Below are positions 9,035-20,626 of a stretch of DNA of 51,509 bases, piece after piece. The DNA lies in contig JBJTRH010000041.1 of NCBI GenBank assembly GCA_046076065.1, forward strand, positions 1-51,509. The letters are read 5' to 3'. This DNA comes from Planctomycetaceae bacterium. Its GTDB lineage: Bacteria > Planctomycetota > Planctomycetia > Pirellulales > UBA1268. A program made the position numbers and the translations under genes. The first letter of the stretch is position 1; every line of letters begins with the position of its first letter. The notes below the pieces were generated by a model. The model was not told where the DNA came from, did not search any database, and saw only the letters and a program-made list of their open reading frames with translations.

Positions 9035-10570
9035 TTACGGCCGGTCGGCTTCCACGGGAGCGTCGCTGCCCGAGGCTGTGAGGGCTCGGCCGGCGGCCGC
9101 GCGACGCACGTGGCCGTCTTCCGCCACGAGCACGCCCGCCTTGAACACCTTCGCCGGCAGCGCGAACATCCGCGCCAGGTCGCGGTCCGGCCGGTAGATC
9201 GCGAGATCGGCGTCGGCGCCCGGCCCGAGGTGGCCCTTGGTCGTGAGCCCCGCGATCCGCGCCGGGGCCGCCCGCGTGACGATGCACAGTTCCTGGAGCG
9301 AGTATTCGCGGTCCAGGTCCTTCAGCGGGCTCCGCTTCCGCACCGCGGGATGGATCCGCTCGAAGGCCGCGCGGCGGAAGGCGGCGTCGCCGAGCAGGGC
9401 CATGAGGTGCGGGTAGGCCGTGAAGTGGGCGCCATTGGGATGGTCGGTGGTGAGCGCCAGCCGCCACGGGTCGCTCGCCGTGAGGAACCATTCCAGCCCG
9501 ATCGCCCACTGCCAGGCGTGGATCAGGCTCTTCTCCTTGTAGGCGATCGGCAGGATGCCGCAGCCGCCCGAGAGGTGAAGGTCGTGCGACACCCAGGGCA
9601 CGCCCGTGGCGTGCGCGAGATGCTCGGCGGCCGCGGAGTCGCCGGTCATCGCGACCGTCTCGCCAAACAGCACCTGCCCGACGTCGAGCGTGAGCGACTC
9701 GTGCCGGTTGAAATAGTCGACCAGCGGGGCCACGCCGGAGCCGAACGAGCCCTCGTCGAGATCGCCGCCGGCATAGCTGTGGAACTGCACGTGCGCGAGG
9801 TGGGCCCGGCGGCCGCCGAACGCCTTCATCGTCTCGAGCAGGGTCTGCCAGTTGCCGGGCAGGCCGAGGTTGGCGGTGTGCACGTGGAGCGGATGCGGCA
9901 GGCCGATCGTCTCCACCGTCTCCGCGAGCCGCTGCAGCAGGATGCGGGGCGTGAGGGTCCGCCCCGGCAGGGGCGTGTCGAGGTCGTGGTGATCGCCGCG
10001 GGCCTGCCGCCAGAATGCCGCGCCGCCCGGATTGGCCACCTTCACCGCCCAGCCCCCGCCCGCGCGGATCGCGTCGCCCACGAGCCGCGCGATCTCGCGG
10101 GGGGTGCCGCGATCGAGCGCCTCGAGCACCGCGGCGTCGTCGGCGGCGAGCAGGTAGATCCCCTTGTCGAGAATCGGTAGCTCGGCGAGCTCGAGGTGGG
10201 CCCGTGCCGCCGCCGACGTGGCGATCGCGGCGTCGAACACGGTGGTGTAGCCGAGGGCGGCGTAGGCGGCGCCCGTGGCGTGGATCGTGGGCACGGCGGC
10301 CGGAGCGGCCGCGCGGCGGGCGAGGTGCGGGGCGATCCGTCGGCCGAGGCCCACCTTCGGTCCCGCCACGTGGCTGTGGAGATCGACGCCGCCGGGCATC
10401 ACGACGAGGCCCGTGCAGTCGATTCGCCGAAACGCCGCCGCGTCGGCCGGCCGCGGCACGATCCGGCCGCTCTCGATCCAGAGGTCGTCGATCACGCCGT
10501 CGCGGCCGGTGGCGGGATCGTGGATCCTGCCGCCGGTGAGCACGAGGCGGTCGTGGGAGGCGGTCGTCAT
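9035..10570 (-). CDS. fhcA: formylmethanofuran dehydrogenase subunit A homologue / formyltransferase-hydrolase complex subunit A (amidohydrolase fold)
   Basis: 511 aa. The N-terminus LVLTGGRIHDPATGRDGVIDDLWIESGRIV...VVMPGGVDLHSHVAGPKVGLGRRI matches the FwdA/FhcA pattern. Its ATG overlaps the upstream stop (ATGA at 10567-10570). Confidence 0.75.
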   Translation of the reverse strand: MTTASHDRLVLTGGRIHDPATGRDGVIDDLWIESGRIVPRPADAAAFRRIDCTGLVVMPGGVDLHSHVAGPKVGLGRRIAPHLARRAAAPAAVPTIHATGAAYAALGYTTVFDAAIATSAAARAHLELAELPILDKGIYLLAADDAAVLEALDRGTPREIARLVGDAIRAGGGWAVKVANPGGAAFWRQARGDHHDLDTPLPGRTLTPRILLQRLAETVETIGLPHPLHVHTANLGLPGNWQTLLETMKAFGGRRAHLAHVQFHSYAGGDLDEGSFGSGVAPLVDYFNRHESLTLDVGQVLFGETVAMTGDSAAAEHLAHATGVPWVSHDLHLSGGCGILPIAYKEKSLIHAWQWAIGLEWFLTASDPWRLALTTDHPNGAHFTAYPHLMALLGDAAFRRAAFERIHPAVRKRSPLKDLDREYSLQELCIVTRAAPARIAGLTTKGHLGPGADADLAIYRPDRDLARMFALPAKVFKAGVLVAEDGHVRRAAAGRALTASGSDAPVEADRP

Positions 10571-11517
10571 GCGGGCGGCTCCCGGCGCGCCCCGATCCGC
10601 GCCGCGACCTGCCGCAGCGCGGTCGCGTCGGCGGGCAGCCGCACGACGGCGACGTCGCCTGCGGCCCGGGTGACCGCCGCCTCCACCTCGGGCGTGGCCA
10701 CGCCCGCCACCATCACGCAGTCGACCTCGCGGCGGTCGAGCAGGCGGACGGCGTCAGCCTCGGCCGGCAGAAACCGCCCGCCGTCCCGGTCGGCCCGCGC
10801 GATCGCTCCCGCGGCGCCGAACCGCCACGTGCAGACGTCGATCGCGGCATCGCCGCGCTCGCCGAGTGGAACCTCGAAGGCCGGCTTGCGATGGGCGAGC
10901 GCCCGCACGAGCGACGCGGTGCTCCACGCCGCGAGGCCCACGCCGTCGTGCCGCCAGTCGGTGACGAGCGCCACGGTCGTGGCGGTCATGGCCGCGGACG
11001 CGAGCTCGCGGGCGGCGGCGAGCACGTGAGAATCGGCGGCGAGTTCGTCGATCGGGAGGTCGCGGATCGCGGCCTCGACGACGCGGGCCAGATCGACCGC
11101 GGCGTCGGTTGCGAGTGCGAGATGCCGGTGGTCCGCTCTCGGCACGGCGACGTCGCGCGGGCCCACCGCGATCGTGCGGCGGGCCGCGTCGGCCGGCCCT
11201 GGGGCGGCGCCCGCGGCGACGAGCTCGCCTGCCGACGGCCCGGGATCGCAGAACCAGAACACGACGAGATCAGCCCGGTCGCGAAGCTCGCCGGTGTCCG
11301 CTGTCACCGACCCGATGCGGGCGAGCAGCGGACCGATCGTCCGCGATGTCTCGGGGCTTCCCGGGTCGACTGCCGCGGCCACGGCCTCGGCCACGTCGCA
11401 GGCGGCCGCCGCCGCCTCTGGCAGGGCTCCGACGAGGCCCGTGACGAGCACCCGCCGGGCGGCTGCGAGCATGGCCGCGGCACGGTCGAGGTCGGCGGCG
11501 GATGCGGCGGCGGTCAT
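10567..11517 (-). CDS. fhcB: FwdB/FhcB-like protein (formyltransferase-hydrolase complex subunit B homologue)
   Basis: 316 aa. The N-terminus DLDRAAAMLAAARRVLVTGLVGALPEAAAAACDVAEAVAAAVD resembles the FhcB/FwdB N-terminal region. Translationally coupled to fhcA. The call rests on this resemblance and on synteny. Confidence 0.55.
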   Translation of the reverse strand: MTAAASAADLDRAAAMLAAARRVLVTGLVGALPEAAAAACDVAEAVAAAVDPGSPETSRTIGPLLARIGSVTADTGELRDRADLVVFWFCDPGPSAGELVAAGAAPGPADAARRTIAVGPRDVAVPRADHRHLALATDAAVDLARVVEAAIRDLPIDELAADSHVLAAARELASAAMTATTVALVTDWRHDGVGLAAWSTASLVRALAHRKPAFEVPLGERGDAAIDVCTWRFGAAGAIARADRDGGRFLPAEADAVRLLDRREVDCVMVAGVATPEVEAAVTRAAGDVAVVRLPADATALRQVAARIGARREPPA

Positions 11518-11547
11518 GCGGAGCGGAGCATGATCGCTGGGGCGGCG

Positions 11548-12870
11548 TCAGGCAAGGCCCGTGAGCGGGCCGGCGTTGCAGTAGTCGGGATTGCCGAACC
11601 GCTCGAGGCCCGTGTGGCCCAGCGCGTGGGCGAGCGTGAGCAGCAGCCGGTTGTGCGGCACACCGGGAAACTCCAGGGCCCGGCCGGTCGTGAACCCGAG
11701 CCCGCCGCCCACGAGCACCCAGGGGATGTCGTCCTGGGAGTGCGAGTTGCCCTCGCCGAGCTCGTTGGTCCAGAGGATCGTGGTGTGGTCGAGCAGCGAG
11801 CCGGTTCCGCCCGGCTCGGGCGTCTCGGCGAGCCGCTTCGCGAGCCAGGCGATCTCGCCGGCGTACCAGGCGTTGATCTTCGTGAGCTTCTCCTGCGCTG
11901 ACGCGTTGGAGTTGGGCTCGTGGGAGAGCTCGTGCTGGGCCTCGTCGACGCCGATCCACTTCATGTGCGGCTGGCCGACGGAGTTGGTGTATTGCAGGGT
12001 GGCCACGCGGGTGAAGTCGGCTGCCAGCGCCGACACCACGAGCTCGATCTGCATCCGGCTGATCCGCGGCATCTGGTCGTTCTGCTCGACGACGCCCTGC
12101 TCGAGGACCGGCACGGCGTGCTGCGCCGCGGCCGGTTCCGCCGCGAGGTCGCGTTCGAAGCCGCGAACGAGCGCTGTGTGCTCCTCCAGGATCCGCCGGT
12201 CCTCGGCCGGCAGTGTGGCCGCCACCTTCGCGAGATCCTCGTGGACCTTGTCGAGGATGCTCCGCATGCTCTCGCGGTCCTTCGTCTCGCCGTAGAGCCT
12301 GGCGAACATCTGGTAGGGATCGTCGATCGGCGCCACGGGCTTGTTCGGGCCGGCGTAGACCATCCGCGTCCAGGTGTCGGCCTTGTTGGGCACGAGCACG
12401 CCGAACTCCAGCGATCCGAAGCGGGTGTGCGTGTCGGGCGACGCCTGGAGGTGCTGCCGGATCTCCTGGTCGATCGAGATGCCGCTGGCCCAGCCCGCGG
12501 GCGAGGCACTGCCGCCCTGGACGTTGCCCGGAAACAGTTCGATGCCCGTGAGCAGGCAGCCCATGCCCCGCATGTGGTCGTCGCCGTCGCCGCGGACGCT
12601 GTTGTTCACGCCCTTGAGCGTGAGCAGGCGATCCCAGAACGGCTCGAAGGGGGCGAGGATCCGCGGCAGCTCGCGGTCGGCCAGCGGCCCCGCCTCCGGC
12701 CAGAAGGTCTTCTTCACCACGCCGTCGGGACTGAACACGATCACCAGCCGGCGCTTCGGGAGGGCCGGGGCTGCCGCCAGGCTGGGGAGGTTGCCGAGAA
12801 ACGGGAGCACTGCCGAACCCACGCCGAGTCGGCGGAGCAGGTCGCGGCGGGAGAGCGACGGGCGCGTCAT
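11548..12870 (-). CDS. DUF1552 domain-containing protein with Tat-type signal
   Basis: Last 441 codons of track ORF 11548..16398, with the ATG at 12870. [23 protein letters not shown] (twin-arginine signal), then [11 protein letters not shown] and [25 protein letters not shown]. It is the usual partner of DUF1592/DUF1588-family proteins. ATGA overlap with the upstream gene. Confidence 0.7.
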
Positions 12871-15800
12871 CGCGAGGCCTCCGGTGGAAAAGCCGCCACC
12901 TCCATGATATCGACCATCAGCCGGCGGATGTCGAATCCATCGGCCACGAACGACTCGCGAAGCCGATCGAGCGTGTCGACGCCCCAGGCCCTGACGGGCT
13001 GCCTGACCAGCGCGTGGAACAGGGCCTGCACGAACGCCTCCTGGGCATCGCGGCTCGTCGCGCACCAGGCGCCCAGTTCGTGTGCCCCCCGGAACGCCCC
13101 CGCCGGACCGATTCGCGGAAGGTACGACCCCGATGCGTTGATCGGCTTCTCCATGCCCCCGGCCCGCTCCACGGTGCGGTGCCGGCCGATGGCATCGAAC
13201 TCCTCGAGGGCGAAGCCGAGCGGATTGATCATGGTGTGGCACGACTGGCAGGCGACCGCGGCCGTCTGGGCCGCGACCCGCTCGCGGGTGGTGAGGTCGG
13301 CCGCCTGGTCGGCCGCGAGCGGCGCGATCGCCTGCTTCGGCGGCTTGAGCACGTTGCCGAGGATGCTCCGCGCGAGAAACACGCCGCGGTGGATCGGCGA
13401 CGAGGAGGCCGGGTAGGAGAGCACGCTCATGAGATACGGATGCGAGAGCACCCCGCCGCGCCGGCCCTCGTCGAGCCGCACGGCGGTGAAGGCCGCGTCG
13501 GGGGGCAGGGCGACGCCGTACAGCGGCGCGAGCCGGCCGTTGAGATGCACGTCGTCCGCGGTGAACAGCCGGCGGTAGTCGCCCCCGCGCCGCAGCACGT
13601 CGTCGAGCATGAGCCCGAGGCTCGTCCGCAGGTCGGCGGCCACGTCGGGCGTGAACTCGGGGTGCACGGCCGGATCCTTGGCGAGCTCGGGCCCGAGGTC
13701 GACGCGGAGCCACGCGAGCAGGAACTCGCGGAGCTTGGCCGTCGTGCGGCGATCGGCCAGCATCCGTTCCGCCTGCCCGCGGACGTCGGCGGGGGTGACG
13801 AGCTGCCCGCGGGCCGCCGCCTCGAGGAGCGGCTGGTCGGGAATCGAGTCCCAGAGCCCGAACGACAGCCGGGCGGCCGTGGCGAACGGGTCGGCATCGG
13901 CCGGCGGCTCGCGGAACAGGAATCGCGGCGAGCCGAGCGTGACGAGCAGCGAGCGGCGCAGCGCCGTGTCGAGGTCGGGCGCGTCGGCGAACGGCCGGTC
14001 GACCACGAGCGACCGCTGCTCCGCGGTGAGCGGCCGGCGGAAGGCCCGCTCGGCGAACGCGGCGGCGAACGCCCTTAGCCGGGCTTCGCGATCGGGGGCG
14101 TCGCGGCCGACGTGCGACAGCCGCTCGAGACGTTCGAGCACGTGGTCGGCCGTCTCGATGGCCGCGGCCGTGGCGGCGGAGAACCACTCGGCCGACACCC
14201 CCGTGCCGCGGTCGTAGCCCAGCGAGCGGTCGTCCGGCGGGAAGGGCGTCGTGACCGCGAACACCGGCGGCGACTCCGTCGGCACGAGCACCCGCTCGGG
14301 AATCGTCTCGAGACAGCCGAACGGCGGTTTCCAGAGCAGGCGGATCGACGCGGGCGACTCCTTCTCGTTCTCCTTGTTGTCCACGCCCTGGTTGGCCTTC
14401 GAGAACTCCAGCCGCAGCGGATGGGCCCGTCCGCCGAGCAGGAACACGCGGCCGCGATGCTCGGTGCCGTCCCCCGATTGCACATACGCATCGATGGTCG
14501 CCGGCTGGCCCTCGTCGGCGTTGACCCAGAGTCGGGCGGAGTGGTCCGTGTGGATCACGACGTCGTGCCAGCCTGTCTCGGCGGGCACGATCGACCCGGT
14601 CCAGCGGATGGCGAAGCGATCGGGCTCGATCCTGTCGGGGGCCGGTCCCGCGAGCCCGAAGTCGAAGGCGACGCCCGGGTCGATCCGCTCGAAGACGAAG
14701 CCCCGCCGGCGGCTGAACTCGCGGGTCTTGAAGTACGCCCCGGTCAGGCCGCGGGCGTCGTCGATGGGGGGCTGCGGCCCTCGGAAGCTGCCGACCACGT
14801 CGGCGAGCACGCGCTGATGCTGGCGGACCGTGAGCCGCTGCAGCTCGGCACGGGCGGGCCGATTGCGATCGCGGGCCACCGCGGAATAGAAGGACTCGTG
14901 AACGAAGGCTGCGACCTGCCGCGCGGCCTCGCCGGTGACCAGCGTGGGATCGTCCTCGGGCATGGTCTCGTCGATGTAGGCGGCGAGCTGGTTCACGGAG
15001 CGGTCGCCGACCAGCGGGGCCGGCACGTCTGGCGTGCCGACGCCCCCGTCGCCGTGGCAGCGAACGCAGTGCTCGCGATAGATGACGAGCCCGGGCGATT
15101 CGTCGGGCGGCGCGGCCCCGGCGACGCCGGCGATCAGGAGCACGAACACGAGCCCGGCCACCGCGATCACCGTCTCGAGCACCGTCCATGTCCGCAGCGC
15201 GTCGCGGACCGAGAGCCCGAGGAACCGGCACACCAGCCAGAAGCCCGAGTCGTTGACGTGCGACGCGATCGTGCCGCCGGCCGCGATGGCGATGGTCATC
15301 AGCGCGGGAAACGGCTCCGGGCGGCCGGCGGCCGTCACGAGCGGCGCGACGAGCCCGGCGGCGGTGATCATGGCCACGGTCGCCGAACCCTGCAGCAGAC
15401 GGATGACCGCGGCCACGAGCCACGCGATCACCAGCGGCGGCAGCGCGGCCCCGACGAGCGACTCGGCCACGGCCTTGCCGGCGCCGGAGTCGACGAGCAC
15501 CTGCTTGAACACGCCCCCCGCGCCGGTCACGAGCAGGATCGTGCCGGCCGGCTCGAGCGACCGCTCCGCGATCCGCTGCACCTCGGCGGCGGGCATGCCG
15601 AGACGGATGCCGAGGAACCAGAACGCCGCGAGCGTGGCCAGCAGGAGCGCGGTGAAGGGATGCCCCACGAGCGCGAGCCAGCGGGTTGCCGGGCCGTCGC
15701 CGAAGGACGTGCGGGCGGCCGTGTCGCCCACGATCAGCACCAGCGGCAGCGCGAGCAGCGCGATCACGACGCCGAGGTGCGGCGGCCGCCGGCCGGCCGT

Positions 15801-16463
15801 CCGCGGAGCCGCCGCCGCCGCGGGCTGCTCCGCGATCAGCCTTCCCGGCGCCAGGGGCGCGAGCACCCGCACGCCGATCACCGCCGCCACAGCGAGCGTG
15901 GGCACGCCGGCGGCGATTCCCATCGCGATCACCCAGCCGAGATCGGCGTCGAGCAGCTGGGCCACGGCGGTGGGGCCGGGCGTGGGCGGCACGAAGGCGT
16001 GGGTCACGGCCATGCCGGCGAGCATCGGGAAGGCGAACGTCGTGATCCCGGTGCCGGTGCGGCGGGCGGCGGCCGCGGCCAGCGGGAGGAGCATCACGAG
16101 CGCCACGTCGAGGAACACCGGGATGCAGACGAGAAACCCGACCGCCGCCAGGGCGATCCAGGTGCGGGCCGGCCCGACCACGGCGATCAGGCCACCGGCG
16201 AGTCGCTCCGCCCCGCCCGACTCCTCGAGCATCGCGCCGAACATCGAGCCCAGGCCGACCACCACGGCCACGAAGCCGAGTGTGGATCCCATGCCGCCGC
16301 TGATCGAGGCGATCACCTTGTCGGGCGGCATGCCCGCCGCGAGGCCGACGCCGATCGCCGCCGCGAGCAGGGCCACGAAGGGATGGACCTTCGCCCATAC
16401 GACCGCGGCGACGAGCGCCACGACACCGGCGGCGGCGACGAGCACGAGGTTCAGCGATTCCAT
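12867..16463 (-). CDS. GntP-family permease fused in frame to a cytochrome-c / PA14 / DUF1592-DUF1588-family protein
   Basis: Track ORF 12867..17381. The ATG at 16463 begins [18 protein letters not shown].... The GntP permease portion is about 445 aa and ends ...[44 protein letters not shown]. The same frame then continues without a stop into a CVRCH heme motif (about 15054-15068), a PA14-like segment ([32 protein letters not shown]), and a C-terminal region with [19 protein letters not shown]. The in-frame GTG at 15182 is a possible internal start. Confidence 0.7.
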
Positions 16464-16520
16464 CGGCGACGCCGCGAGGCGCTCCCTGCGAGCCGGCCTG
16501 TAGCGTAGCCTACGCGGGCC

Positions 16521-17582
16521 ATGAAGGCCCTTCTCCTCACCTCGCCGGGCGAGCTGTCGATCGCCGAGGTGGACGATCCCGTGCCCGCCCCCGACGAGGC
16601 CCTCGTGCGGGTGGCGGCCTGCGGGATCTGCGGCAGCGACGTGCACGGCTTCACCGGCGCGACCGGCCGACGGATCCCACCGCTCGTGATGGGGCACGAG
16701 GCGGCCGGCACGGTCGTGGCGGTGGGCGCGGGCGTGTGCGGGCTCGAGGTCGGCGCGCGGGTGGCGATCGACTCCACCGTGTTCTGCGGCGCGTGTGCCC
16801 GCTGCGCGGCCGGCCGTGAAAACCTCTGCTCCCGGCGGCAGGTGCTCGGCGTGTCGTGCGGCGACTACCGGCGTCATGGCTGCTTCGCCGAGTTCGTGGC
16901 CGTGCCCCGCCGCTGCCTGCATCCGCTTCCTCCCGGGCTCGACTTCGTGACGGCGGCGCTGCTCGAGCCGCTCACGATCGCGTTGCAAGCCGCCACGCTC
17001 GGCGCCGCCGGCCCGGCGACGCGGTCGGCGGTGGTCGTGGGGGCGGGCACGATCGGCCTGGCGGCGGTGGCGGCGCTCGTGGCTCGGGGCGTGAGGCGGG
17101 TGGCGGCGATCGACGTCGTGACCGCGCGGCTCGACCGCGCCCGTAGGATGGGCGCCGCGGAGGTGTTCGTGGCCGACCGGCCGGACGTGGGGCGGCTGGC
17201 CGCGGCCTGGGCCAGCGCGACGCCCGACGACGACGGCGCCGACCTCGTGATCGAAGCCGTGGGCACGAGCGACTCCGTGGCGACGGCGGTGGCCGCGGCG
17301 GGCCGGGGCGGCACGGTCGTGCTCGTCGGCAACGTGTCGCCGACGATCGAGCTGCCGCTGCAGGCCGTCGTCACGCGGCAAGTTCGGCTGCAGGGGTCGT
17401 GTGCCTCGGCCGGCTCGTATCCGGAGGCGATCCGGCTGGCGGCGAGCGGCGCGGTCGACCTCACGGGCTTCGTCTCGGCTGTGGCGCCGCTCGTCGAGGG
17501 GCCGGCGTGGTTCGGGCGGCTTCGCCGCGGGGAGCCGGGCGTGGTGAAGGTGGTGCTCTGTCCCGAGGGAGGATTCGCATGA
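16521..17582 (+). CDS. zinc-dependent alcohol dehydrogenase family (L-idonate/sorbitol dehydrogenase-like)
   Basis: 353 aa. Carries the MDR motifs CGICGSDVH, GHEAAG and the structural-Zn CGACARCAAGRENLC. Divergent from the GntP gene across 57 bp. Confidence 0.8.
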   Translation: MKALLLTSPGELSIAEVDDPVPAPDEALVRVAACGICGSDVHGFTGATGRRIPPLVMGHEAAGTVVAVGAGVCGLEVGARVAIDSTVFCGACARCAAGRENLCSRRQVLGVSCGDYRRHGCFAEFVAVPRRCLHPLPPGLDFVTAALLEPLTIALQAATLGAAGPATRSAVVVGAGTIGLAAVAALVARGVRRVAAIDVVTARLDRARRMGAAEVFVADRPDVGRLAAAWASATPDDDGADLVIEAVGTSDSVATAVAAAGRGGTVVLVGNVSPTIELPLQAVVTRQVRLQGSCASAGSYPEAIRLAASGAVDLTGFVSAVAPLVEGPAWFGRLRRGEPGVVKVVLCPEGGFA

Positions 17583-18370
17583 CCGACGTGTCGCTCTTCG
17601 ACCTCACCGGCCGCACCGCCCTGGTGACGGGCGCAAGCCGCGGTCTCGGCCTGCAGATGGCGCGGGCCCTCGCGCGGGCCGGCGCGAACCTCGTGGTCAC
17701 CGCCCGCTCGGTCGACTCGCTCGCCGGCCCCTGCCGCGAGCTGAGAGACCTCGGCCGCACCGTGACTCCCGTCGCGCTCGACCTCCGCGACGAGGCGAGC
17801 ATCCGTGCCGCCGCGGCCGCCGCCCTGGCCGCCGGCCCGATCGACGTGCTCGTCAACAACGCCGGCTGCAATGTCCGCAAGCCGGCCCTCGACGTGACGT
17901 GGGACGACTGGAACACCGTGCTTGACACGAACCTCCGCGGCACGTTCTTCATGGCGCAGGCCGTCGCCCGGCAGATGCTGCCCCGCGGCTGCGGTCGGAT
18001 CGTGAACGTGGGCAGCGTGACGAGCGTGTTCGGGTATGCCGGGCTCGCTCCCTACACCGCGAGCCGGGGCGGCGTGAAGCAGCTGACGATGAGCCTCGCC
18101 GACGAGTTCGGACCGCACGGCATCACGGTCAACTGCCTGGCCCCCGGCTGGTTTCGCACGGCGCAGAACGACGTGCTCTATCGCGACGAGGCCTGGCTCG
18201 CCTACCTCGTGGATCGGATCCCCCTGCGGCGGCCCGGCCGGCCCGACGACCTCGACGGGGCGATCGTGTTTCTCGCGTCGGATGCCAGCGGCTACATCAC
18301 CGGCCAGACGCTGCTCGTCGATGGCGGGATCACGACCGGTGCCACGCGGGCCCTGCCGGCGGCGCGGTGA
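17579..18370 (+). CDS. SDR family oxidoreductase (gluconate 5-dehydrogenase-like)
   Basis: In-frame ATG at 17579 within track ORF 17399..18370. Motifs TALVTGASRGLG, NNAG and YTASRGGVKQLT (YxxxK). ATGA overlap with the upstream Zn-ADH. Confidence 0.8.
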   Translation: MTDVSLFDLTGRTALVTGASRGLGLQMARALARAGANLVVTARSVDSLAGPCRELRDLGRTVTPVALDLRDEASIRAAAAAALAAGPIDVLVNNAGCNVRKPALDVTWDDWNTVLDTNLRGTFFMAQAVARQMLPRGCGRIVNVGSVTSVFGYAGLAPYTASRGGVKQLTMSLADEFGPHGITVNCLAPGWFRTAQNDVLYRDEAWLAYLVDRIPLRRPGRPDDLDGAIVFLASDASGYITGQTLLVDGGITTGATRALPAAR

Positions 18371-18373
18371 GCG

Positions 18374-19387
18374 TCACGCCGGCCGGGCGAACACGAGCCG
18401 GCCGGCCGAGGTCTGGAGCGTGCTCGTGACGCTCGCCCGCACGGTGCTGCCGATCCGGTCGCGGCCGTTCTCCACCACCACCATCGTGCCGTCCTCGAGG
18501 TAGCCGACGCCCTGGTCCGGCTCCTCCCCCTGCTTCACCAGCCGCACGCTCAGGGCGTCGCCGGGCACGAACGTCGGCTTGAGCGCGACGGCCACGTCGT
18601 TGACGTTGATCGCGGGCACGGAGCGGACGCCGGCGAGCTTCGCGGCGCTGCCGTCGATCGTGATCACGCGGCCGCCGAGTTCGCGGGCCAGGTCGATCAC
18701 GCGGGTCTCGAGCGAGACGTCGTCGTGTGACTCCTCGCGCGGGGAGATGACGTCGATGTCGATCGCCTCGTTGGCCCGGAGCCGGGCCAGCACGTCGAGG
18801 CCGCGGCGGCCACGGGTCCGCCGCTGGCGATCGGCCGACTCCGCAGACGTCTGCAGGTCGTCGAGCACGAACGACGGCACCACGAAGCGGCTCTCGAAGA
18901 CGCCGGCCTCGGCGAGATCGGCGATCCTCCCGTCGACGATGGCGGTGGTGTCGAGCACGTTGGGCCGCAGTCCGCGGACGTCGCGGGCGAACTCGACGTA
19001 GGGCAGGATGAAGCGGAACTCGTCGCGGGTCTGCAGCAGGAGGCTGGTGCAGATGTAGCAGAGGATGCTGCCGAGGATCAGCGGCAGCCAGGTGCGGAAT
19101 GGACTGTCGGGGTCGACCGGCAGGATCGGCGTGAGCGCGAGCATCGAGACGTAGGTCAGGAAGGCGCCGATCACGAGGCCGAAGTAGACCGCCGTGATCA
19201 CCGTGAGGTCCTTGTGGCGGATCGAGGTGTCGATGCCGATCACCGCGAGCGTGAGCGCCACCATGCCAGCGAGCACGGCCCACGGCTCCCAGGCCGACGA
19301 AGCCTGCGCCACCTGCGAGCGGAAGATGAGCACGGCGATGCCCACCGACACCATCACGAACAGCGCGCGGAGGACGAGCAGGGCCAT
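18374..19387 (-). CDS. membrane-anchored PIN + TRAM domain protein (YacL-like)
   Basis: 337 aa. N-terminal TM helices, a PIN-like VLDTTAIVDGRIADLAEAG...VPSFVLDDLQ segment, and a C-terminal TRAM-like GDALSVRLVKQGEEPDQGVGYLEDGTMVVVENG. Confidence 0.75.
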   Translation of the reverse strand: MALLVLRALFVMVSVGIAVLIFRSQVAQASSAWEPWAVLAGMVALTLAVIGIDTSIRHKDLTVITAVYFGLVIGAFLTYVSMLALTPILPVDPDSPFRTWLPLILGSILCYICTSLLLQTRDEFRFILPYVEFARDVRGLRPNVLDTTAIVDGRIADLAEAGVFESRFVVPSFVLDDLQTSAESADRQRRTRGRRGLDVLARLRANEAIDIDVISPREESHDDVSLETRVIDLARELGGRVITIDGSAAKLAGVRSVPAINVNDVAVALKPTFVPGDALSVRLVKQGEEPDQGVGYLEDGTMVVVENGRDRIGSTVRASVTSTLQTSAGRLVFARPA

Positions 19388-19468
19388 GGTCGAATCGCAC
19401 GACGAGGAGCGGACGGACGAGGCTCTGATTCTACCACCGCCGCCACCGCCGGCCCATCGGCGGCCGGC

Positions 19469-20626
19469 TCACCCCGCCGCGATCCGCCGGCGGTGATCGA
19501 CCTCGAGAAAGCGGTCGGTCATGCCCGCGATGTAGTCGGCCACGCTCCGCCGCAGGCCGCACGTCTCCGCCCGCTGCCGGAAGCCGGCCGGCAGCGCCTC
19601 CGGATGGGCGGCATACCACTCAAAGAGCTCCGTGAGCTTCTGCTGGGCGGGGATCCGCATGTCGAGCACCCGCGGGCTGCGGTAGACCCTCTCGAAGAGG
19701 AACCGCTCGAGCTCCCGCTTGCCGGCGGCGATGCCCGGGGCGTGGGCCACGATGCGGCGACCGGGCTGGCCCTCGCCGCCGCGGTAGACCTGCCGGACCC
19801 GGGCGGCGGAGTCGACGCCGAGGGCGTGGATCGCCGCTCGCGTTTCGTGAATCAGTTCCGCCACCTGGAAATCGACGAGCTCGTGGAGGATGGCCCGGCG
19901 GGCCTCGATGCCCGCGAGCGGGCCGTGCCGCTTGGCAACCCGGGCGGCCGCGTCGGCCACCAGCGGCAGCTCGCGGAGCTCGTCGAGCGTGACCAGGCCG
20001 AGCTCGATCGCGTCGTCGGCGTCGTGGGTGTCGTAGGCGATCGAGTCGGCGGCATCCACCACCTGCGCCTCGAGGACCGGTGCCGGCGCGGTGCCGTCCT
20101 TCTTCCGCGTCGCCTGGGCGTCGAGCACCTCCCGCGAGAGGTTGAGGCCGGGGAAGTTCGGGTAGCGGGTCTCGAGCAGCTCCATGATCCGCAGCGCCTG
20201 AGCGTTGTGGTTGAAGCCGCCGTCGTCGCGGAGGAGCTCGGCGAGCGTGTCTTCGCCGGCGTGGCCGAGCGGCGGGTGGCCGATGTCGTGGCCGAGGGCG
20301 AGCGTCTCGACGAGATCCTCGTTGAGGCACAGCGCCCGTGCGAGTGTGCGGGCGATGCTCGTCACCTCGAGCGTGTGCGTGAGCCGGCTGCGGTGGTAGT
20401 CGCCGTGGTAGCCGGTGAACACCTGCGTCTTGTGCGCCAGCCGGCGAAACGCCGCCGAGTGCACGATCCGGTCGCGGTCCCGCTGGTAGGGGCTGCGGAA
20501 CTGGTGCGGGGGCTCGGGATGCACGCGGCCCGCGGAGTCGACGGCGTGCATCGCCCAGGGGGCGAGGAGCAGGCTCTCGCGGGTTCGCCAGTCGGGCTGG
20601 CTCCAGCCGGGATCGTCGGCGGTCAT
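19469..20626 (-). CDS. deoxyguanosinetriphosphate triphosphohydrolase-like protein (HD domain)
   Basis: In-frame ATG at 20626 within track ORF 19469..21151. Motifs YQRDRDRIVHSAAFRRLAHKTQVF, HYHRSRLTHTLEV and GHDIGHPPLGH. Confidence 0.8.
   Translation of the reverse strand: MTADDPGWSQPDWRTRESLLLAPWAMHAVDSAGRVHPEPPHQFRSPYQRDRDRIVHSAAFRRLAHKTQVFTGYHGDYHRSRLTHTLEVTSIARTLARALCLNEDLVETLALGHDIGHPPLGHAGEDTLAELLRDDGGFNHNAQALRIMELLETRYPNFPGLNLSREVLDAQATRKKDGTAPAPVLEAQVVDAADSIAYDTHDADDAIELGLVTLDELRELPLVADAAARVAKRHGPLAGIEARRAILHELVDFQVAELIHETRAAIHALGVDSAARVRQVYRGGEGQPGRRIVAHAPGIAAGKRELERFLFERVYRSPRVLDMRIPAQQKLTELFEWYAAHPEALPAGFRQRAETCGLRRSVADYIAGMTDRFLEVDHRRRIAAG

Follow-up and report, generated by a model that had tools for sequence, protein, structure and literature searches.

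Planctomycetes carry many paralogous pairs of DUF1592-type and DUF1552 proteins. Previously, the pairing of the PSCyt/PSD and DUF1552 proteins, their carbohydrate-binding modules (PA14 included) and their predicted periplasmic or cytoplasmic location have been described, and a link of the PSCyt3/DUF1592 family to carbohydrates has been suggested (He et al. 2017, PMC5615132). The unfused pairs of Planctomycetota and Verrucomicrobiota begin with a protein that has its own Sec signal peptide and the domain order cytochrome c, PA14, PSD5, PSD4 and PSCyt3. The present study deals with a gene in a 51,509-nucleotide contig of a Planctomycetaceae bacterium (GenBank assembly GCA_046076065.1, contig JBJTRH010000041.1; hereafter the window) that keeps this domain order, the translational coupling to DUF1552 and the neighbouring genes, with 64 to 88% identity in the shared part, but has a whole 450-residue transporter of the GntP family in place of the signal peptide. 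This combination of GntP with PSCyt3/DUF1592 is a new architecture, found only in this narrow clade of freshwater planctomycetes. Judged from the sequences compared below, the fusion is a genuine heritable gene. That it exists, how it originated, how old it is and that purifying selection acts on both of its halves can be read from the alleles themselves. As a whole, we consider it likely that a cassette replaced the signal peptide and that the last GntP helix took over its role in export.

The underlying principle, a membrane protein and an exported domain combined in one open reading frame (ORF) by an internal signal-like helix, is already known from FbcH and LtaS. In FbcH of Bradyrhizobium japonicum, a polytopic membrane protein and a c-type cytochrome follow each other in one ORF, and the cytochrome is exported by an internal signal-like hydrophobic segment. 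This cytochrome b-c1 polyprotein, reportedly described by Thony-Meyer and colleagues around 1989-1991, is said to be made as a precursor that is cleaved into two proteins. FbcH unites two subunits that belong to a single complex and is a fixed feature of its lineage, whereas the join in the window is recent and polymorphic, and its halves have no known functional link. In Staphylococcus aureus LtaS, the type I signal peptidase SpsB cuts after the last helix of a polytopic protein and frees the extracytoplasmic domain (PMC12260438). LtaS differs from the present case in belonging to an unrelated family, in being a single evolutionary unit and in having a membrane part that is not a transporter.

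The fusion ORF occupies 12867..16463 on the minus strand, stop codon included. It runs from the ATG at 16463 to the TGA at 12869-12867 without an internal stop, and encodes 1198 residues. The N-terminal part (residues 1-450; 15114..16463, minus strand) is a complete GntP permease including its native C-terminal tail, as indicated by Pfam, standalone relatives, an AlphaFold2 (AF2) model and Foldseek. GntP_permease (PF02447) matches residues 7-445 over profile positions 3-438 of 440 (E 1.9e-129; 432.7 bits, cut-off 22.5), and TIGR00791 gntP scores 395.1 bits versus a cut-off of 292.75; the equivalog models of the GntP family remain below threshold (219-368 bits versus cut-offs of 524-744, e.g., 368 versus 625). 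Since standalone relatives terminate 3-9 residues past an 'LLIA' motif (P0057 at ...IMIAAVAGVL, P0049 at ...LLIAAACGGSPRP), the GntP side of the join is complete. The AF2 model of this part has a predicted local distance difference test (pLDDT) score of 75-97, and its Foldseek matches include VcINDY/DASS, TRAP SiaQM and AbgT YdaH/MtrF, with target-normalised TM-scores of 0.5-0.64; on this model, the GntP half has the predicted elevator-transporter fold of the IT superfamily. All 116 close GntP homologues examined are 440-470 residues long, and the window departs from this free-standing form of about 450 residues, typical of the family, by 750 more residues in frame.

These further residues begin with a c-type cytochrome domain (residues 457-521; 14901..15095, minus strand; PF13442 Cytochrome_CBB3, 33.8 bits, cut-off 27), whose CXXCH motif (CVRCH, C466-H470) is kept in every fused and unfused relative. 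A putatively carbohydrate-binding PA14 domain follows (residues 570-715; 14319..14756, minus strand; PF07691), with 6qe7 and 6qdi, the PA14 domain of RsgI3, as its matches in the PDB. The C-terminal part (13170..14078, minus strand; Pfam) consists of PSD5/DUF1595 (residues 796-851), which is below threshold at 28 bits (cut-off 34.2), PSD4/DUF1592 (residues 859-984; PF07631, 115.5 bits, cut-off 23.3) and PSCyt3/DUF1588 (residues 1002-1098; PF07627, 99.5 bits, cut-off 27), the last with a second CXXCH (CQSCH). For the whole fusion, the AF2 model has a mean pLDDT of 68 and a predicted TM-score (pTM) of 0.46, being confident in the GntP half and poor in the DUF1592 half. Downstream lies the DUF1552/HXXSHH partner gene (11548..12870, minus strand; 440 residues; PF07586, 269.6 bits). 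Its ATG overlaps the stop codon of the fusion ORF (ATGA, 12870-12867), which couples the two genes, and GGAGG stands 7 nucleotides upstream of this ATG. The pairing of the DUF1592-type protein with DUF1552 is kept in all relatives. Thus far the locus conforms to an earlier note made from the letters alone, which had described one stopless frame from a complete GntP into a cytochrome c/PA14/DUF1592-1588 protein and an ATGA coupling to DUF1552 at 12867-12870: the profiles and the quoted peptides were all found in place, and the DUF1552 ATG is read inside the overlap. The current annotation of the fusion protein is 'gluconate transporter' only, a label that hides the DUF1592-family protein.

The absent stop codon alone would be weak evidence, because the G+C of this region is 70-76% (72-76% in the cassette described below, 70-74% in its flanks) and spurious frames of more than 1000 codons are common. 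The observation gains its significance from the presence of two strongly supported protein families in one frame and from a junction that diverged relatives have retained. Among 5.8 billion proteins searched, one of 1199 residues (P0001) matched the whole query (100%) at 91% identity, and its cluster holds four further full-length fusions of 1199 residues (P0031, P0033, P0034 and P0039). The fused gene was also read on contigs from ENA (L001), two JGI samples (L013 and L014), JGI again (L097) and the GenBank metagenome-assembled genome (MAG) 'Pirellulales bacterium MiE-14oct19-63' (L017). These proteins and loci are the orthologous basis on which we describe the fusion ORF. Altogether, at least eight other assemblies of independent origin, from different assemblers and samples, have this junction; they fall into three lineages about 10% apart in DNA. 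The window and L013 have about 90% DNA identity over 19 kb of synteny, and their GntP region, like the cassette as a whole, has diverged as much as the flanks. An artefact of sequencing or assembly, i.e., a missed stop, a frameshift or a chimeric join in the contig, is a possibility only a priori, given that open frames are common at high G+C. Since frame and junction persist in sequences of different assemblers that differ at about a tenth of their sites, and assemblies that have diverged by 2-10% have the identical junction in the same frame, such an error has a practically negligible chance and we exclude it. The assembly error that the earlier note had listed is thereby contradicted by data from ENA, JGI and GenBank, and the true transporter-periplasmic module fusion on the same list is borne out by the further assemblies and by the purifying selection on both halves. 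The idea that orthologues are separate gene pairs whose stop is missing only here fails as well, as the unfused relatives lack the GntP gene altogether.

In these unfused relatives, the DUF1592 protein is free-standing, has 764-802 residues and a cleavable signal peptide (MRIACVLIIGGGLAAAATA, followed by DEPPG), and has no GntP nearby. They include P0002 (L010; 88% identical), P0003 (L002-L009; 77%), and P0035 (L011) and P0041 (L012), which fall within the 90% cluster of the fusions; L010, L011 and L012 were the unfused alleles compared, and L002 was taken as outgroup. Their gene order is ScpA, HIT, HD, a 337-residue gene, DUF1592, DUF1552, a 313-residue gene and an amidohydrolase. In the window, L001, L013 and L017, genes for a short-chain dehydrogenase/reductase (SDR), a Zn-dependent dehydrogenase and the divergent GntP sit between the 337-residue gene and DUF1592. 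This inserted cassette of SDR, alcohol dehydrogenase (ADH) and GntP (about 3.27 kb; 15105..18373) is absent from the unfused alleles. The empty allele has the stop of the 337-residue gene, a 66-nucleotide spacer and the 57 nucleotides that code for MRIACVLIIGGGLAAAATA, so that about 123 nucleotides have been swapped for about 3.27 kb. Homology resumes at GA(C/G)GAGCCGCCCGGG, which encodes D/E-E-P-P-G, exactly at the predicted cleavage point of the unfused signal peptide. By this comparison of filled-site with empty-site DNA, the junction or linker is A451-S456 (APPDES; 15096..15113, minus strand), and the breakpoint falls between P453 (15107-15105) and D454 (15104-15102), with an uncertainty of about 3 codons either way; residues 452-455 have a pLDDT below 50 in the AF2 model.

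The nearest free-standing GntP (P0049, 81% identical) has its own stop and lies next to the same divergent dehydrogenase (L015), from which it follows that the cassette is an independent unit in related planctomycetes. The ancestor of the fused allele had a DUF1592-type periplasmic protein with its own cleavable Sec signal peptide, encoded 66 nucleotides downstream of the 337-residue gene. A sugar-acid cassette (SDR, Zn-ADH and divergent GntP) then replaced the spacer and the signal-peptide codons; with the GntP stop gone, the frame ran from the GntP tail straight into the N-terminus of the mature DUF1592 protein. The lost stop codon contemplated in the earlier note is not tenable as an error; as an evolutionary origin it holds, since an indel took out the stop codon of GntP together with the spacer and the signal peptide of the DUF1592 protein. 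The cassette bears no compositional sign of foreign origin, its G+C being similar to that of the flanks, and neither a transposase among the called genes nor a repeat in the boundary sequences came to notice, though no dedicated repeat search was run. An intermediate with the cassette present but unfused was not found among the loci collected, and a degenerate DNA pattern of the GntP tail, run against a sample of metagenome contigs, gave only the fused L097.

The three genes of the cassette have a counterpart in the GntII system of E. coli, in which idnDOT encodes the Zn-ADH IdnD, the SDR IdnO and the GntP-family IdnT, one protein for each class in the cassette. The window has the fused permease, a Zn-dependent alcohol/polyol dehydrogenase of 353 residues divergent from GntP (16521..17582, plus strand) and an SDR oxidoreductase of 263 residues that is gluconate 5-dehydrogenase-like and has an ATGA overlap with the ADH gene (17579..18370, plus strand). 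In contrast to idnDOT, the cassette proteins score below the equivalog cut-offs (IdnD 131 versus 469; gluconate 5-dehydrogenase 246 versus 279), the permease is fused, and no regulator or kinase gene lies inside the cassette. By its protein classes, the cassette is similar to catabolic gene sets for sugar acids or polyols. On its left side, the insertion site is flanked by the conserved 337-residue membrane/TRAM-domain gene (18374..19387, minus strand). At 18368-18376 of the window, the stop codons of this gene and of the convergent SDR gene are 3 nucleotides apart, and the corresponding distance in L013 and L001 is about 27 nucleotides, which indicates a 24-nucleotide deletion at the left edge of the cassette in the window. 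At another locus (L038 4693-6191), a different ORF of 409 residues on the opposite strand is inserted between the 337-residue gene and DUF1592, and the site seems prone to insertions. A tblastn match in L038 seemed to extend back to residue 350; the gene turned out to be an ordinary unfused one.

Fused and unfused states are found in close relatives. Unfused L011 has 98.4-99.5% identity to fused L001 and L013 in the 337-residue gene, the mature DUF1592 part and DUF1552, and unfused L012 has 97.4-98.3% identity to fused L017 in the same three genes. As these unfused alleles are near-identical to those of fused strains, the fusion is a presence/absence polymorphism in at least two species-level lineages; the window belongs to a third lineage, in the fused state. 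The junction common to the three fused lineages, -[PA]-P-[DEG]-E-[SP]-P-G, points to a single origin. Among these lineages, the GntP part has a synonymous divergence (dS) of 0.18-0.28, close to the values of its flanking genes; therefore, the fused allele is about as old as the lineages, or passed between them in an early transfer. Furthermore, a scan of GTDB species representatives kept 80 loci, and the cytochrome c motif was found in 31 of them. One of the 31 (L017) is fused; in each of the remaining 30, the protein has a signal-peptide-like N-terminus of its own. The view of the earlier note that such cytochrome-domain proteins normally begin with their own signal peptide or anchor is in agreement with these 30 loci and with all unfused alleles. 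The signal peptide usual at the N-terminus of PSCyt3/PSD4/PSD5 proteins is lacking in the window, where GntP takes its place.

Selection on the two halves was assessed by the ratio of nonsynonymous to synonymous divergence (omega; Nei-Gojobori). For GntP, omega is 0.10-0.16 at the dS given above, and 0.026 in its last 100 codons; as GntP at this locus occurs only in fused form, this constraint does reflect the fused state. For the DUF1592 part, omega is 0.20-0.21 between fused alleles, 0.19-0.23 between fused and unfused alleles and 0.20-0.24 between unfused alleles; for DUF1552 it is 0.12. None of at least nine fused sequences has a stop or a frameshift over the 750 downstream codons, and both CXXCH motifs are kept. 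These figures bear on another explanation, that the join is a tolerated accident which has destroyed export and left the 750 codons as a dead or degraded passenger, intact only through its youth or through refreshment by recombination. Recombination does refresh the DUF1592 body, which is near-identical in fused and unfused strains (dS 0.025 between L013 and L011, 0.067 between L017 and L012), the fusion does segregate with unfused alleles within species, and the loss of one DUF1592/DUF1552 pair might be tolerated where there are many paralogues. Youth, however, is at odds with GntP dS values that in three lineages are about those of the flanks. Nor would a passenger be expected to show the same omega between fused as between unfused alleles, an open frame in every fused sequence, and intact CXXCH motifs with an intact coupled DUF1552. 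Moreover, the breakpoint is in frame and precisely at the signal-peptide cleavage site, as expected if only export-competent joins survived. We therefore regard a dead passenger as very improbable.

The last GntP helix (residues 426-450; 15114..15188, minus strand; pLDDT above 90 in the AF2 model) is a candidate export signal or signal-anchor of the module behind it. Across 116 homologues, the loop before the helix keeps positive charges at positions 413, 420 and 424 (R413, R420 and R424 in the window), and by the positive-inside rule the helix would run from the cytoplasm to the periplasm. The residues at its end, A448-G449-A450 next to A451, with a Gly at -5, correspond to the standard motif of signal peptidase I; AGA and the following A are identical in the window, L013 and L017, and the next six residues vary. 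The segment thus combines internal hydrophobicity with a positive N-side and small residues at -3 and -1. In free-standing GntPs, the last helix is followed by a short uncharged tail; in the fusion, the cytochrome domain starts 7 residues past the helix and its CXXCH lies 16 residues past it. The charged loop and the AGA-A motif, together with the fusions and the fission described below, lend good support to the idea, put forward in the earlier note, that the last GntP helix occupies the position of the signal peptide. Haem is attached to CXXCH on the periplasmic side of the membrane. The last helix would do the job of the lost signal peptide, threading the cytochrome c/PA14/DUF1592 module across the membrane, and on the periplasmic side haem would be attached to the module and the module would meet its DUF1552 partner. 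We infer export of the module in this protein on these grounds; the module may stay tethered to GntP or may be freed by signal peptidase I at A450-A451.

Fusions of GntP to other periplasmic-type proteins were found elsewhere. In 14 GntP-cyclase (PF04199) fusions (P0015-P0028), a lipobox Cys comes directly after the last GntP helix in 13, e.g., ...LLLSLVAGC followed by APP. Three GntP-SGL/gluconolactonase (PF08450) fusions of about 800-830 residues (P0012-P0014) include one with a lipobox (P0013, ...LASLVGC followed by APP), and here the union of a gluconate permease with a lactonase in the periplasm would be plausible in functional terms. As in the window, no further membrane segment separates the last GntP helix from the periplasmic-type domain directly behind it, and the helix blends into the c-region of a signal peptide; fused and split forms exist. 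They differ from the window in having the lipobox L-V-x-G-C, which implies signal peptidase II and lipidation, instead of A-x-A, in their partner domains and in belonging to other phyla (one relative is named Gemmatimonadales). Standalone relatives of the cyclase (79-86% identity) are lipoproteins. Some of them have a classical signal peptide; that of others can be recognised as the loop and helix from the end of GntP, with MTVQQTLKTWTVAEAIIGVAGLGFTLLLSLVVAC at the start of P0199 and shortened versions of this sequence in P0172 and P0185. The related loci are L098 848-4783 and L099 4001-4735. L098 has a complete GntP ending in the helix, a beta-lactamase-family gene on the opposite strand, and then a cyclase gene that opens with a duplicated GntP terminal helix (about 90% DNA identity) behind AAGGAG, the copied loop and helix being the signal peptide of this lipoprotein. 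Since split cyclases use a copied GntP loop and helix, the homologous helix can serve as a complete export signal. By analogy, a periplasmic GntP C-terminus fits this use of the helix for export in the GntP-cyclase lineage. These fusions and the fission suggest a repeatable route by which genes for transporters and periplasmic proteins fuse and split.

The same loop and helix could alternatively be used from within the ORF. An internal start at the GTG at 15233 (V411) or 15182 (V428) would yield a separate DUF1592 precursor with the GntP loop and helix as cleavable signal peptide, the full-length GntP then being a by-product or a second product; this may also operate alongside export by the last helix of the full-length protein. 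In-frame GTGs exist at these two positions and at 15170 and 15161, and a start at 15233 would give a charged loop, a helix and AGA-A, which is a good signal-peptide layout. GntP-cyclase fusions have a Met at the equivalent loop position (FFNMTV...), and split cyclases start exactly there, behind AAGGAG in L098. However, none of the four GTGs is preceded by a Shine-Dalgarno-like motif, unlike DUF1552 (GGAGG) and the SDR (GGGAGGA). The 20 nucleotides upstream of 15182 have 4 changes between the window and L013, synonymous sites there varying freely; the 18 codons of the last helix have no difference between the two, a number too small to mean much. Conservation of the GTGs is uninformative, as they encode Val residues that are conserved in unfused GntPs too, that at 15182 being the Val of the GntP motif TWTV. 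For this GTG, which the earlier note had listed as a possible start of a second product, the codon does exist in frame; the N-terminus that it would give lacks positive charges and has Glu as its third residue. Two products from one frame appear unlikely, if less so than a dead passenger.

Export of the module by the last helix of the fused GntP, which we prefer, has several points to contend with. A polymorphism that is confined to a narrow clade and still segregates would fit a tolerated accident as well as an adaptive coupling. The low omega of the DUF1592 part is not purely a record of the fused state, because its body recombines with unfused alleles. A PDB sequence search with the GntP part gave no solved GntP structure, and the literature searched had nothing usable on GntP topology, so the orientation of the helix rests on the positive-inside rule and analogy; the C-terminus of VcINDY, presumably periplasmic, is a lead and not a test. 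Within the 25-residue helix, the hydrophobic stretch has 17 residues after E430, and as this exceeds a typical cleaved signal peptide, cleavage is uncertain. The AF2 model is uninformative on contacts between the halves, and on the role of the DUF1592 part, because the DUF1592 half is poorly modelled. A more far-reaching proposal would be that the last helix of the GntP family is a recurrent, exchangeable signal. The ORF would then be a polyprotein from which signal peptidase I, cutting at A450-A451, makes a separate permease and a separate cytochrome-type protein of the periplasm; in the lipobox fusions, signal peptidase II would do the cutting. The long-lived fused/unfused polymorphism would be kept because the fusion ties the production of PSCyt3/DUF1552, in amount and in regulation, to sugar-acid uptake. 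We regard this as a speculative possibility that is rather doubtful at present.

The insertion would place DUF1592, DUF1552 and the genes behind them after the GntP promoter region and away from the 337-residue gene, and has probably changed the regulation of DUF1592/DUF1552. The 57-nucleotide divergent region between ADH and GntP (16464-16520) contains GTAGGCTACGCTAC with short inverted GTAG/CTAC arms, a candidate operator. A promoter and terminator scan of 11400-19500 gave no sigma-70-like sites and terminator-like sites at chance level, which is uninformative for a planctomycete. Downstream of DUF1552 (9035-11517, minus strand) lie genes for a 316-residue protein with weak similarity to subunit B of formylmethanofuran dehydrogenase and for a 511-residue protein that matches subunit A (TIGR03121, 536 bits, cut-off 392.75); the order DUF1592, DUF1552, B-like and A-like is kept in all relatives examined, although the two pairs are not known to be linked. 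Long spurious ORFs occur on both strands of 10000-18500, due to the high G+C, and one of 1616 residues (11548-16398, minus strand) carries the DUF1552 frame on for 3.5 kb upstream, past the true start of the gene; an open frame by itself does not denote a gene here.

Our analysis found no functional link between the GntP and DUF1592 halves, and, as the unfused allele segregates, any such link would not be obligatory. For the function of DUF1592/DUF1552, the locus offers no new clue except that the pair tolerates placement behind a sugar-acid permease. The locus does constitute a dated natural experiment with an internal control, in which near-identical strains carry either the protein's own signal peptide or a whole transporter, and both states persist under selection. 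It thereby makes testable whether the last helix of a polytopic transporter can replace a Sec signal peptide in vivo, and whether it is cleaved.

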